Below the pieces are notes generated by a model that did not search any database, was not told the origin of the DNA, and saw only the letters and a list, made by a program, of their open reading frames with translations. DNA of 64,000 bases from Bacteroidota bacterium. GTDB lineage: Bacteria; Bacteroidota; Bacteroidia; Bacteroidales; WCHB1-69. Positions 60,257 through 61,757 of this stretch are shown one piece after another. The first letter of the stretch is position 1. Each line of letters opens with the position of its first letter. Both the position numbers and the translations under genes were made by a program. Location of the stretch: assembly GCA_022708105.1 (NCBI GenBank), contig JAKIZI010000003.1:14544-78543 (forward strand), in the 5' to 3' direction.

Positions 60257-60301
60257 CATCTGTTTTGAAAACAATGTGAAAATAAATATATCACTAAAGA
60301 A

Positions 60302-60365
60302 CAAAAAGTTATGGCAGAAAAAAAATTTATGACTTGCGACGGTAACTATGCAGCAGCACATGTCG
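60302..60365 (+). repeat. direct repeat copy 1: duplicated nifJ 5' end (leader plus first 18 codons)
   Basis: 63 of 64 positions are identical to 61694-61757. The single difference is TAT versus TGT. It continues into a 50-codon ORF that diverges after AAAHV. Confidence 0.95.
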
Positions 60366-60469
60366 GACAGATTTTTTTGATGTCGTTGTTAGATGAAAGT
60401 AATGATAAAAATAAATTATTCTTTTATGCCTGTAACGCTATCTATAATAAAGATATAGATTAAAAATAA

Positions 60470-61654
60470 GTGAACATGGGAAGCGAGTTATCCAATATTT
60501 TAAATCTTGTCAACCAGATTGATACAACTAATCATGTGTTGCAACAGCGGGCTGTCTTGTCGGTCAATCGTTGTCTCACTTTTCGTAATTGGTTGATTGG
60601 ATATTACATCGCTGAATATGAAATGCAGGGAGTTGATAGAGCAGCATACGGTAGCAATCTGATAAAAGAGATTGCTAAACGAGTAAAACATATTAAAGGA
60701 TTGACAAGTAGTCAACTTTATACCTGCAAAAAATTTTATGATACCTATCCCTATTTTTTAGAACCTATTGTTTCATCACTCAAAGAAAGCGAAAAACAAC
60801 AAATTTCAATTTTACGGACACTGTCCGTAAAATTACAAAGCAATAATAATGAGAATGATACAATTTTCCGGTCAGTGACCGAAAAATCTTCGGAGCTTAT
60901 GGAAGTCAATAATGAAGTGGGCTTTTCTATGCCTCCCCAAATAATTTTTTCTCGATTATCATATTCACATTTTTTGGAATTATTACGAGTAGAAGATCCG
61001 CTCAAACGTATGTTTTATGAAGTAGAATCCGTAAAAAATTGCTGGAGTGTTCGACAATTGGAAAAGGCGATTGATACGTTACTTTGCGAAAGGACCCAAT
61101 TATCTATAAAGAAAGAATCCCTCATTGCAAAAATCAAAAATTTACCACCCAAAAGCAATCTCGAAATCATTCGCGACCCACTTAATTTGGAATTTTTAGG
61201 ATTAGAAGGGCTTACAGAATATTCCGAAAGCGATTTAGAGGCAGCAATTATCAATCATTTGCAAAAATTTTTAATAGAATTAGGACGTGGGTTTTGTTTT
61301 GAAGCAAGACAAAAACGGATTTCATTTGATAACACTTATTACTATATTGACTTGGTCTTTTATCATCGCATTTTAAAATGTAATATTTTAATAGACTTAA
61401 AAGTAGGAACATTTACACATGCCGATTCAGGACAGATGCAAATGTACTTGAATTATTATCAAATGGAGGAAATGAGTGAAGGAGATAATCCTCCTGTTGG
61501 CATTATTCTTTGTGCCGACAAAAAAGATTCACTAGTCAAGTATGCAACCGCTCACATCAATGAACAATTGTTTGTAAGCAAGTATCTTGTAGAACTTCCC
61601 AATAAAAAACAATTAGAAGAATTTATCAATAATGAAATGATAAAATATCAATAA
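60470..61654 (+). CDS. DUF1016 / YhcG-type PD-(D/E)xK nuclease family protein
   Basis: 394 aa. C-terminal nuclease core with YYIDLVFYHRILKCNILIDLKVG (D...D/ExK pattern). N-terminal helical domain typical of DUF1016. The start may be ATG 60476. Confidence 0.7.
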   Translation: MNMGSELSNILNLVNQIDTTNHVLQQRAVLSVNRCLTFRNWLIGYYIAEYEMQGVDRAAYGSNLIKEIAKRVKHIKGLTSSQLYTCKKFYDTYPYFLEPIVSSLKESEKQQISILRTLSVKLQSNNNENDTIFRSVTEKSSELMEVNNEVGFSMPPQIIFSRLSYSHFLELLRVEDPLKRMFYEVESVKNCWSVRQLEKAIDTLLCERTQLSIKKESLIAKIKNLPPKSNLEIIRDPLNLEFLGLEGLTEYSESDLEAAIINHLQKFLIELGRGFCFEARQKRISFDNTYYYIDLVFYHRILKCNILIDLKVGTFTHADSGQMQMYLNYYQMEEMSEGDNPPVGIILCADKKDSLVKYATAHINEQLFVSKYLVELPNKKQLEEFINNEMIKYQ

Positions 61655-61693
61655 TGATAAAATATCAATTAATATATAGAAAGAACTAAATAC

Positions 61694-61757
61694 CAAAAAG
61701 TTATGGCAGAAAAAAAATTTATGACTTGCGACGGTAACTGTGCAGCAGCACATGTCG
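61694..61757 (+). repeat. direct repeat copy 2: 5' end of intact nifJ
   Basis: See copy 1. The offset between the copies is 1392 bp. Confidence 0.95.

Follow-up and report, generated by a model that had tools for sequence, protein, structure and literature searches.

Incoming DNA that shares a single homologous segment with a chromosome can be integrated by two documented routes, a single crossover of the Campbell type and one-sided homology-facilitated recombination (HFIR) (PMC3240628; PMC5361080). An HFIR-type model has been proposed for displaced T6SS effector/immunity and Rhs arrays (PMC5361080). The locus described here, in which a nuclease gene is inserted at the start of nifJ, resembles such products in several respects. 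A homologous segment has become a direct repeat around apparently foreign DNA, donor-type polymorphisms are found in the distal copy, a dedicated recombinase does not seem to have taken part, and a rare one-off event would have been followed by spread through ordinary homologous recombination. The locus differs in that homology is provided by the 5' end of an essential metabolic gene and in that the foreign gene was placed between the nifJ promoter and start region and nifJ itself. Furthermore, the founding event and the donor are reconstructed here, and the core of the repeat looks homogenised between the copies.

Direct repeats of tens of nucleotides also flank att-site islands, prophages and cis-mobilisable elements. 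In these elements, as at nifJ, the element-borne target end keeps the gene intact and the copy on the element side has diverged outside the core. However, the nifJ insert has no integrase, is only 1.39 kb long with a single cargo gene, and is present in the genomes of one species only. It also supplies no promoter, so that nifJ would depend on read-through.

PDC-S02 is a phage defence candidate of PADLOC that consists of a single gene (bioRxiv 10.1101/2024.01.29.577857), and DUF1016 genes occur inside type I restriction-modification (R-M) and other defence loci (PMC9881135). The operon-embedded members of PDC-S02 are of the same protein family as the nifJ insert nuclease, and they too are single co-directional genes with very short spacers and no promoter of their own. 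At nifJ the host operon is a housekeeping gene rather than a defence system, and the footprint of the embedding is preserved in the form of a duplication and empty alleles. Integron gene cassettes are likewise single promoter-less ORFs driven by an upstream resident promoter, but the flanking repeat at nifJ is host coding sequence, no IntI gene was seen in its vicinity, and the only structured element noticed is a hairpin within the nuclease ORF. Free-standing homing endonuclease genes share with the nifJ insert the location of a nuclease gene at a point where an essential gene is highly conserved, the polymorphism among strains and the adjoining co-transferred tract. They differ from it in that here the target site is regenerated, only one species is occupied, and the DUF1016 family is not known as a family of homing enzymes.

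Architecture and transcription of the locus

The window is the whole 64-kb stretch of DNA that was analysed. The features of the nifJ locus within it are the following.

60249-60256, plus strand: TACCTTTG, the nifJ promoter box (-7, Bacteroidetes type), 54 nt upstream of the first ATG
60257-60301, plus strand: native nifJ leader (L type), identical to the empty-site leaders of L090, L105 and L106
60302-60365, plus strand: left repeat copy, which begins 9 nt before the nifJ start, at the end of the leader, and covers codons 1-18 plus the first nt of codon 19
60311-60463, plus strand: 50-codon ORF, 18 nifJ codons fused to 32 insert codons, ending 12 nt before the nuclease ATG
60366-60475, plus strand: left non-coding insert end, overlapping the tail of the 50-codon ORF and missing from empty sites
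60476 (ATG) or 60470 (GTG) to 61654, plus strand: DUF1016/YhcG PD-(D/E)xK nuclease gene, intact, 392 aa from the ATG
60808-60834, plus strand: perfect hairpin of 12-13 bp inside the nuclease ORF, encoding ILRTLSVKL in the variable linker of DUF1016_N
61636-61669, plus strand: 17-mer AATGATAAAATATCAAT twice in tandem, with the nuclease stop codon (61652-61654) on the unit junction
61665-61693, plus strand: second nifJ leader fragment (R type), an allele unlike the native leader and without promoter box
61694-61757, plus strand: right repeat copy, which opens the functional nifJ
61703-64000, plus strand: nifJ (pyruvate:ferredoxin/flavodoxin oxidoreductase, PFOR), running off the window end; 1181 aa in the same-species contig L003
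61801-62065, plus strand: variable nifJ patch next to the insert, the right part of the tract that differs between alleles; three haplotypes

The two copies of the 64-nt direct repeat are identical at 63 positions and lie 1392 nt apart. No other long dispersed two-copy repeat of such a kind occurs in the window, and the flanking-repeat score at the locus is 64, compared with a shuffled maximum of 13. The single mismatch (A at 60348, G at 61740) is at position 2 of codon 13, which encodes Tyr in the short ORF and Cys in nifJ. Weaker similarity is seen upstream of the repeat between ACTAAAGAAC (60293-60301) and ACTAAATACC (61685-61693), and continues with an indel to about 61665. These results bear out the first-pass annotation, which had described a 64-bp duplication with one differing position, about 10 bp of weaker similarity upstream, a first copy that opens only a 50-codon ORF and a second that opens the PFOR gene.

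The ORF list of the insert contains the 50-aa ORF, which has no match in Pfam, and the nuclease gene; no integrase, transposase or recombinase was found in it, in agreement with the earlier reading. Minus-strand ORFs of 46-84 aa within these two ORFs are unsupported. A transposon or insertion sequence was rejected, as there is no transposase ORF, terminal inverted repeats pairing the two insert ends were looked for and not found, and the duplication is at least 64 nt long. The left insert end (60366-60475) is not conserved with the locus of the closest homologue, L001. It has a weak similarity to the native intergenic sequence at 60114-60196 (3 of 500 shuffles score as high), which is not above the best of 80 unrelated upstream regions and is not significant; descent of the left 110 nt of the insert from the NfeD-nifJ intergenic region, as a diverged copy, was considered and set aside for its weak score.

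Motifs shared by the insert ends had also been reported, but these are weak. The 17-bp tandem duplication is present at 61636-61669, whereas the motif at 60401-60413 is a loose match only. The window contains three exact occurrences of the 12-mer AATGATAAAATA. The one at 60194 is upstream of the promoter, native and found in empty sites too; those at 61636 and 61653 are at the right end of the insert. This distribution was counted against the explanation that we favour below.

The TACCTTTG box aligns with the TAnnTTTG boxes of the nifJ promoters of relatives, and it is identical in the empty contigs L090, L105 and L106. A motif scan of 60257-63805 found no other TAnnTTTG box on the plus strand. 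Neither the nuclease gene nor nifJ in the occupied allele therefore has a canonical box of its own inside the insert, as the annotation had supposed. RNA contigs of X26 and X27 start at 60277/60278, about 20 nt past the box, and continue through copy 1 to 60800. The nuclease gene is transcribed in at least seven metatranscriptomes, with coverage in X25-X31 and X34 about as deep as that of the nifJ pieces. As the RNA contigs begin just past the nifJ box and enter the nuclease gene, this gene appears to be transcribed from the nifJ promoter, which had also been proposed. The 50-codon ORF is likely to act as a leader for translational coupling. No plus-strand terminator was found inside the insert, and transcription would read through from the nuclease gene into nifJ. 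No RNA contig bridging 61600-61710 was found, and nifJ may therefore have an unconventional internal promoter within the insert.

Occupied and empty alleles

Empty sites, which the annotation had suggested looking for in relatives, were found in L105, L106 and L090 and in 80 more distant relatives. Contigs L105 and L106 are of the same species as the window. In both of them promoter, leader and nifJ follow one another directly, and the NfeD protein is identical to that of the window. They match the window without mismatch over 3.5 and 2.9 kb of left flank, as far as 60339 (nifJ nt 29). In the sister species (L090) the site is empty and the gene order unchanged, with 92% identity in the flank and 95% in nifJ at the nucleotide level, and 98% amino acid identity in PFOR. 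None of the 80 GTDB relatives has a DUF1016 gene within 5 kb upstream of nifJ or a second copy of the nifJ 5' end. With relatives that lack the arrangement and empty alleles in the same species, the locus is a true insertion, as first thought, and not an ancient fixed duplication. It is strain-variable within one uncultured Bacteroidales species from anaerobic digesters, a relative of the F082 / Ca. Limimorpha group.

The occupied and the same-species empty alleles differ in one tract only, which consists of nifJ nt 30-55, the insert, the leader and nifJ nt 1-363. The left repeat copy equals the empty alleles up to 60339; it then has C at 60340 and A at 60352, as does the right copy. Both copies thus have C30 and A42 in their core and all close empty alleles have T30 and T42, and the known empty alleles are therefore not fresh excision products. 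In the patch at 61801-62065 the window has 22 differences from L003/L089 and 20 from L105/L106, but none from L090. All compared alleles are identical again beyond 62065.

The leader that adjoins the core on the right is of a different type. The core repeat is identical at 63 of 64 positions, whereas the leader next to it has diverged and contains an indel (Fisher p = 0.001). The R-type leader matches the leader of L091, at the homologous position, at 33 of 36 nucleotides with one 6-nt gap. Loose contig ends of relatives join the R-type leader at 61684 in X3 and at 60293 in X3 and X8. When metagenomes were scanned with a 41-mer that covers both leader types, a single contig was retrieved, and it is occupied. 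By these comparisons the right-hand copy carries a foreign nifJ leader allele, which favours the suggestion in the annotation of an element with a replacement 5' end for its target gene. This foreign tract is found in an otherwise identical background. The inserted piece therefore brings its own replacement nifJ 5' end and is exchanged by homologous recombination. The polymorphism within the species would reflect either gain of the insert or its replacement by an empty allele.

Two further observations were not used as evidence. Unitig depths were considered as a sign of co-occurring empty strains, the left flank being deeper than the insert in X1, X3, X5 and X8 and the branch from the right copy into nifJ (61710-61792) deeper than the insert in X4; these depths are internally inconsistent and possibly affected by AT-content bias. 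The insert of the window has no SNP compared with that of L003, and this was rejected as evidence of recent spread, the strains being near-clonal with patchy imports.

Origin of the insertion

We consider it fairly probable that this strain-variable 1,392-bp insertion, with its nuclease driven by the nifJ promoter, arose by Campbell-type or one-sided homologous integration of foreign DNA and is not self-mobile. The foreign DNA would have contained a promoter-less nuclease gene and, at its right end, a foreign nifJ leader and the first 18 codons. Recombination within the nifJ homology would have joined it to the chromosome, either through a single crossover with a fragment that was circular or had been circularised or through one-sided homology-facilitated recombination; by either route the homologous segment would be left as a direct repeat without a dedicated recombinase. 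At the locus the right copy is preceded by the foreign leader and the left copy by the native promoter and leader. The core of both copies was probably homogenised later by gene conversion, and the comparison of alleles shows that the finished allele moves between strains via ordinary homologous recombination through its flanks. Transcription appears to begin at the nifJ TACCTTTG promoter, and ribosomes would start in copy 1 and translate the 50-codon ORF to 12 nt before the nuclease ATG. The transcript would then pass 48 nt further into copy 2, which would give nifJ its start region. In this manner the nuclease would be expressed constitutively together with a central-metabolism gene, and nifJ stays intact.

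The donor arrangement, a nuclease gene next to nifJ outside this species, was not found in the genomes and contigs searched. The founding event is therefore reconstructed rather than observed, the donor lineage being one that would combine the nuclease with the R-type leader. With a recipient like L105, a simple single crossover or simple HFIR does not predict C30 and A42 in both copies; their presence must reflect gene conversion, a different recipient allele or the import of a pre-formed structure. The locus is neat but is probably a single, unrepeated product of recombination.

Other explanations account for part of these data. The discrete insert, the direct repeats of att-like length (64 nt, 63/64) and the diverged target leader on the element-side arm, a feature also of elements that reconstitute the ends of tRNA or protein genes, would fit a remnant or minimal site-specific integrative element. 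Its 64-nt core would be attL/attR, a tyrosine or serine recombinase would act in trans on a cis-mobilisable piece, and the element arm would bring a nifJ 5' end that restores the target gene. Homologue L100 lies beside two integrase genes and homologue L103 near RteC. This explanation is nevertheless unlikely: no recombinase is found among the insert ORFs, none of the viral contigs scanned for the nifJ 5' core carries it, more than 80 relatives have nothing integrated at the nifJ site and no second nifJ 5' copy, the nuclease at 90% identity or above is found at the nifJ locus only, and the unitigs, in which rare circles would not show up, contained no circular or excised form. The att-type duplication or mobile element of the first-pass annotation is thus not supported, the closest homologues also lacking such repeats. 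An in-situ origin is quite unlikely as well. About 64-90 nt of the target would in that case have been duplicated when the nuclease DNA entered by a non-homologous event (replication slippage, template switching or a staggered break that was filled in), and the right leader would have diverged or been converted later. The two copies do share the derived C30 and A42 that the close empty alleles lack, as sister copies would, and the 17-mer tandem is a small slippage-type duplication at the same locus. However, divergence is very uneven, with 1 difference in 64 in the core against about 25-30% and an indel in the adjoining leader, and no constraint is evident on the coding part of the left copy. 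Native leaders found at the homologous position in other lineages resemble the R leader, and a target duplication of at least 64 nt far exceeds known transposition footprints.

Homing endonucleases of the PD-(D/E)xK type exist, the insertion point lies in a part of nifJ (nt 56-98) in which close relatives do not vary, and the foreign tract adjoins the insert like a co-conversion tract. A self-propagating homing-like cassette would have its nuclease cut empty nifJ near nt 55/56 and be copied by repair, with the spare 5' end keeping nifJ working. We regard this as very unlikely. The empty-allele junction, CATGTCG followed by CATACATG, is regenerated intact at 61751-61765, and occupied alleles would therefore not be immune. 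In addition, the cassette is present in one species only, family members elsewhere are embedded in R-M and defence loci, and the same kind of tract is left by any homologous import. An assembly artefact or an ancient fixed arrangement is extremely improbable. Short-read graphs do break at the repeat and contain many unitigs of 1.39-1.45 kb, but both junctions are spanned by independent assemblies (ENA contig L003; JGI contigs L004, L089, L107 and L113) and RNA contigs cross copy 1. Independent SPAdes, JGI, Logan and RNA contigs cross each junction into unique sequence on both sides, empty alleles have distinguishing bases of their own, and relatives are without the arrangement.

Defence-type single genes are often embedded co-directionally in operons, and their route of entry is rarely visible. 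The nifJ locus keeps the footprint of embedding: the 5' end of the target is duplicated, one leader is a foreign allele, and alleles with and without the insert share a background that is identical elsewhere. It can therefore be used, on the homologous integration reading, as a natural example of homology-driven embedding and of the capture of a promoter and start site from an essential, highly expressed gene. It also calls for caution in annotation, as in occupied strains the apparent nifJ promoter is 1.45 kb from nifJ and assemblies break at the repeat.

The nuclease and its relatives

The first-pass annotation had placed a single DUF1016/YhcG-type nuclease gene between the copies. A Pfam search (PF17761 and PF06250) identified both domains of the family in the intact gene above their gathering scores, YhcG_C at 4e-55 (186 bits, cut-off 32.5) and DUF1016_N at 1e-23 (84.5 bits, cut-off 32.8). 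The protein keeps all invariant columns of 25 homologues, including E276, D292 and D307-L-K309. It matches PDC-S02 (PDLC04807) of PADLOC over residues 8-390 with E = 8.4e-122. Its sequence thus makes it a member of this candidate defence family, with a predicted role in defence. A constitutively expressed member of the family would be available here for comparison with isogenic empty strains. There is no defence system beside the gene in the window, where the neighbours are NfeD, FloA, nitroreductase, PFOR and GlnS. Homologue L116 is located between hsdM and hsdS of a type I R-M system, co-directionally, and other homologues are also embedded co-directionally in operons. The PDB sequence search gave no solved relative, the AlphaFold model is poor (pLDDT 53, too low for a fold search), and searches of NCBIfam and Rfam gave nothing useful.

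Fourteen homologue loci (5 metagenomic or genomic, 5 viral and 4 plasmid) were tested for flanking repeats. No repeat above shuffles was found at L001, L100, L101, L103, the five viral loci or L115-L117. Locus L114 has a weak, imperfect match of 24 nt. At L102, a 96-nt copy of the nuclease's own 3' end lies 9 nt before the nuclease start codon. Seven viral relatives of the nuclease, at about 40% identity, are without flanking repeats, and no second copy of the nifJ-site insert was found elsewhere. The proposed search for DUF1016 genes flanked by duplicated 5' ends of host genes thus gave no general pattern, and the idea that such genes are generally flanked in this way is unsupported by the 14 loci.

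It is conceivable, if doubtful, that DUF1016 genes travel as recombinase-free minimal cassettes (minicircles or concatemers) in which the conserved 5' end of a highly expressed host gene serves as the sole integration module and host RecA inserts them. RecA could also reversibly excise a cassette lying between a promoter and start region and its gene. Such cassettes would obtain strong constitutive expression of the nuclease at no cost to the host gene, and a circular or multimeric intermediate would have left a second footprint in the 96-nt 3'-end copy at L102.

The hairpin at 60808-60834 has a predicted fold of -13.4 kcal/mol (z = -6.3). Homologue genes contain one to three copies of it, with compensatory changes at 3 pairs.

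The duplicated nifJ start and its transcription

The start of nifJ is present twice as a direct repeat of 64 nt, at 60302-60365 and 61694-61757 (63/64 identical, spacing 1392 nt). The sole mismatch in this core is an A at 60348 versus a G at 61740 (TAT/TGT), which falls on codon 13 position 2 and gives Tyr in the left copy and Cys in nifJ. The pair has a flanking-repeat score of 64, whereas shuffles reach at most 13, and a repeat search of the whole window found no other dispersed two-copy repeats like this pair. The features of the locus are as follows:

60249-60256, + strand: promoter box TACCTTTG, from the TAnnTTTG scan
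60311-60463, + strand: left-copy ORF of 50 codons, opened by the left repeat copy
60476-61654, + strand: nuclease ORF, intact, 392 aa (Pfam YhcG_C 4e-55, DUF1016_N 1e-23)
61636-61669: tandem 17-mer of two units, with the nuclease stop codon on their junction
Right copy to past the window end, + strand: nifJ (PFOR), 1181 aa in a same-species contig

The first-pass annotation had described this duplication and its TAT/TGT difference, the short ORF opened by copy 1 and the full PFOR gene opened by copy 2, a single DUF1016/YhcG gene between them, the 17-bp duplication straddling its stop codon and the lack of an integrase; all of this is borne out. The nuclease ORF is the one intact ORF between the left-copy ORF and nifJ, and the insert encodes no recombinase. 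An assembly artefact is ruled out because both junctions are crossed by independent assemblies (ENA contig L003; JGI contigs L004, L089, L107 and L113) and by RNA contigs. Across all 64 kb there are just three exact copies of the 12-mer AATGATAAAATA, one at 60194-60205 in native sequence 44 nt 5' of the nifJ promoter box, and two at 61636-61647 and 61653-61664 within the tandem 17-mer at the right end of the insert; no shuffle attained the observed count of matches with at most one mismatch.

The weaker similarity reported upstream of the repeat is also present, ACTAAAGAAC standing opposite ACTAAATACC, beyond which the leader alignment requires an indel. Mismatches number 1/64 in the core versus roughly 6/23 in the adjoining leader (Fisher p = 0.001). 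The left leader is of the native type, the same as in a sister species (L090) and in two same-species contigs (L105, L106). The right leader (about 61665-61693) is a distinct allele, it matches the leader of contig L091 at the homologous position (33/36 with one gap), and in other-lineage contigs (runs X3 and X8) this leader type is joined to other upstream sequence. These alignments show the right-hand leader to be a foreign allele. The right copy thus has a foreign-type leader and a nifJ start, in keeping with the earlier idea of an element carrying a replacement 5' end for its target gene.

The nifJ box is the only canonical plus-strand promoter box, the motif scan finding no other TAnnTTTG on that strand before 63806; as first noted, neither the nuclease gene nor nifJ has one of its own. 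Metatranscriptome contigs of two runs start at 60277 and 60278, about 20 nt past the box, cross the left copy and reach 60510 and 60800. The nuclease gene is therefore reached by transcription from the nifJ promoter region, as had been proposed. Eight RNA-type runs (X25-X31, X34), four of them flagged as possibly not pure RNA, cover the nuclease gene at a depth similar to nifJ pieces. There is no plus-strand terminator-like site within the insert and nifJ lies 48 nt past the nuclease stop, after the spare leader; we infer read-through into nifJ rather than observe it, since no RNA contig bridges 61600-61710. The 50-codon ORF begins with the nifJ start region and stops 12 nt ahead of the nuclease ATG, which suggests that the two may be translationally coupled.

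Empty alleles and exchange at nifJ

The site was compared at three distances, following the earlier suggestion to look for empty sites in relatives. None of 80 GTDB relatives (PFOR 65-84% identical; uncultured Bacteroidales, among them 'bacterium F082' and Ca. Limimorpha) carries a DUF1016 gene in the 5 kb upstream of nifJ or a second nifJ-start copy, and most of the 80 have a TAnnTTTG box 50-90 nt ahead of the nifJ ATG. In the sister species contig L090 (PFOR 98% aa; flank 92% and nifJ 95% nt identical) the gene order is that of the window, with Metallophos, 5'-nucleotidase, nitroreductase, FloA and NfeD before nifJ and GlnS and SurA after it; its promoter and leader equal those of the window's left copy and lead directly into nifJ. 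Same-species contigs were retrieved by look-up of the window's NfeD protein, three are occupied (L104, which equals L003; L107; L113) and two, from different runs, are empty (L105, L106). In the empty contigs the left flank matches the window without a difference for 3.5 and 2.9 kb, up to 60339; they then have T, G and T at nifJ nt 30, 38 and 42 and continue without the insert. These bases are absent from the occupied allele, so L105 and L106 represent genuine alleles, not collapsed assemblies. Because the three tiers agree, the comparison shows that the nuclease piece is an insertion and that the species is polymorphic for it. The occupied form is found in about 20 public metagenomes from landfill, digester, wastewater and bovine sources.

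Occupied and same-species empty alleles differ in one tract only, from left-copy nifJ nt 30 through the insert and right copy to nifJ nt 363 (62065), past which they are identical again. The stretch 61801-62065 exists in three forms; that of the window is the L090 form and differs at 22 sites from L003/L089 and at 20 from L105/L106. A foreign tract bounded by identical sequence, together with three patch forms, makes the locus a recombination mosaic. Alignment shows that the occupied allele is a short stretch of foreign sequence set into the empty strains' clonal frame, and that it is exchanged by ordinary homologous recombination, although the tract does not tell whether the insert was gained or replaced by an empty allele. 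The first 100-360 nt of nifJ comprise at least three haplotypes, about 7-8% apart, in one near-clonal background, and further downstream, at nifJ nt 1050-1800, there are more mosaic blocks.

Origin of the insert

We propose that foreign DNA, in which a nifJ leader and 5' codons came after the nuclease gene, joined the chromosome via that nifJ homology. Entry would have been by one crossover with a circular or circularised fragment or by homology-facilitated recombination at one side, and in both cases the shared segment would end up directly repeated with no recombinase needed. Single crossover and one-sided homology-facilitated illegitimate recombination (HFIR) are both documented for incoming DNA with one homologous segment (PMC3240628; PMC5361080). 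C30 and A42 are common to both copies and every close empty allele has T30 and T42, a pattern that neither simple route would explain if the recipient was L105-like. The core may then have been homogenised by gene conversion, the recipient allele may have been different, or the whole structure may have been imported ready-made from an unsampled donor. Homologue, relative-genome and metagenome-contig searches found no donor lineage; most runs are public at unitig level only, which permits no reading of rare circles, hybrid empty sites or allele frequencies.

An att-type duplication had also been considered. Such an element, moved in trans, is unlikely, the insert has no recombinase and neither another occupied site nor an attP carrier was found. 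Duplication of the target in situ is slightly less probable again, it sits poorly with the uneven divergence of core versus leader and with the foreign type of the right leader. A homing-like cassette is very improbable: at the right junction the target sequence is restored, which would leave the occupied allele without immunity, and occupied sites are confined to one species.

The insert behaves as a Campbell/HFIR product would, and as an embedded defence gene would. It shares with integrative elements the rebuilding of the target gene, but is not counted among them because it lacks a recombinase. It is not a transposon, and nothing at the insert supports either an integron cassette or a gene for a homing endonuclease. 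The arrangement is an unusual variant, in which an insertion inside the coding 5' end of the essential gene nifJ is made harmless by a spare nifJ 5' end and captures the nifJ promoter and start region. The finding would be of wider interest if cassettes of this kind prove to be a recurrent, RecA-driven class.

Nuclease homologues and other repeats in the window

Every invariant column of 25 homologues is kept in the nuclease, including E276, D292 and D307-x-K309, and the protein is a new member of the known DUF1016/YhcG family; its structure model was too poor in quality for use. It matches PADLOC PDC-S02 (8e-122), one of 145 'guilt-by-embedding' defence candidates (bioRxiv 10.1101/2024.01.29.577857). 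DUF1016 genes are enriched beside phase-variable R-M loci (PMC9881135) and are carried on conjugative elements (PMC4316617).

For the closest homologue (70% identity) the context is different and has no flanking repeats, and its DNA similarity is restricted to the ORF. Homologues at L001, L101, L102 and L116 are in operons, co-directional with spacers of 9-130 nt, that of L116 lying between hsdM and hsdS, and those at L100 and L103 adjoin integrases or RteC. The data do not support the idea that duplicated host-gene 5' ends flank DUF1016 genes in general: a clear flanking repeat was found in 1/14 homologue loci, L102, and it copies the nuclease's own 3' end. In this termite-gut Bacteroidia MAG the 96-nt copy (2896-2991 vs 4100-4197) has four mismatches and a 29-nt perfect stretch and lies 9 nt ahead of the start codon. 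The arrangement gives the impression that a circular or tandem cassette went in as slightly more than one unit. A Hymenobacter plasmid (L114) has a split, maybe frameshifted, DUF1016 gene with an imperfect 24-nt direct match (1314-1337 vs 2503-2526; score 15, shuffled maximum 11).

Within the nuclease ORF there is a perfect 12-13 bp hairpin at 60808-60834 (TTTTACGGACA C TGTCCGTAAAA; -13.4 kcal/mol, z = -6.3) encoding ILRTLSVKL, which lies in the variable linker of DUF1016_N. The examined homologue genes carry 1-3 copies of it (L001 6321-6451, L101 3297-3383, L102 ~3282-3308, L103 ~1803-1829), and its peptide motif occurs 0-4 times among 120 homologues. Compensatory changes at three hairpin pairs alter the peptide, which suggests that selection may act on the nucleic-acid structure.

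Elsewhere in the window, 18580-24666 holds four to five successive cassettes, each of which opens with the conserved, promoter-like TATATTTG stretch together with 75-207 nt of similar sequence that includes an Rhs/YD-core-like end coding stretch GYSYFGARYYNSDISIWLSVDPLSDK; the region resembles an array of orphan polymorphic-toxin tips. Tandem arrays lie just 5' of and inside this toxin-like region. Two adjacent arrays of 21-nt units occupy 18059-18508, the first (18059-18268) with about 10 TGCTTATTTGCCGAGGGTGCC-like units and the second (18215-18508) with about 14 units, five of them with TACATTTG, and a 22-nt array of AAAACGTTTAGACGATTTGTTG lies at 22459-22564.
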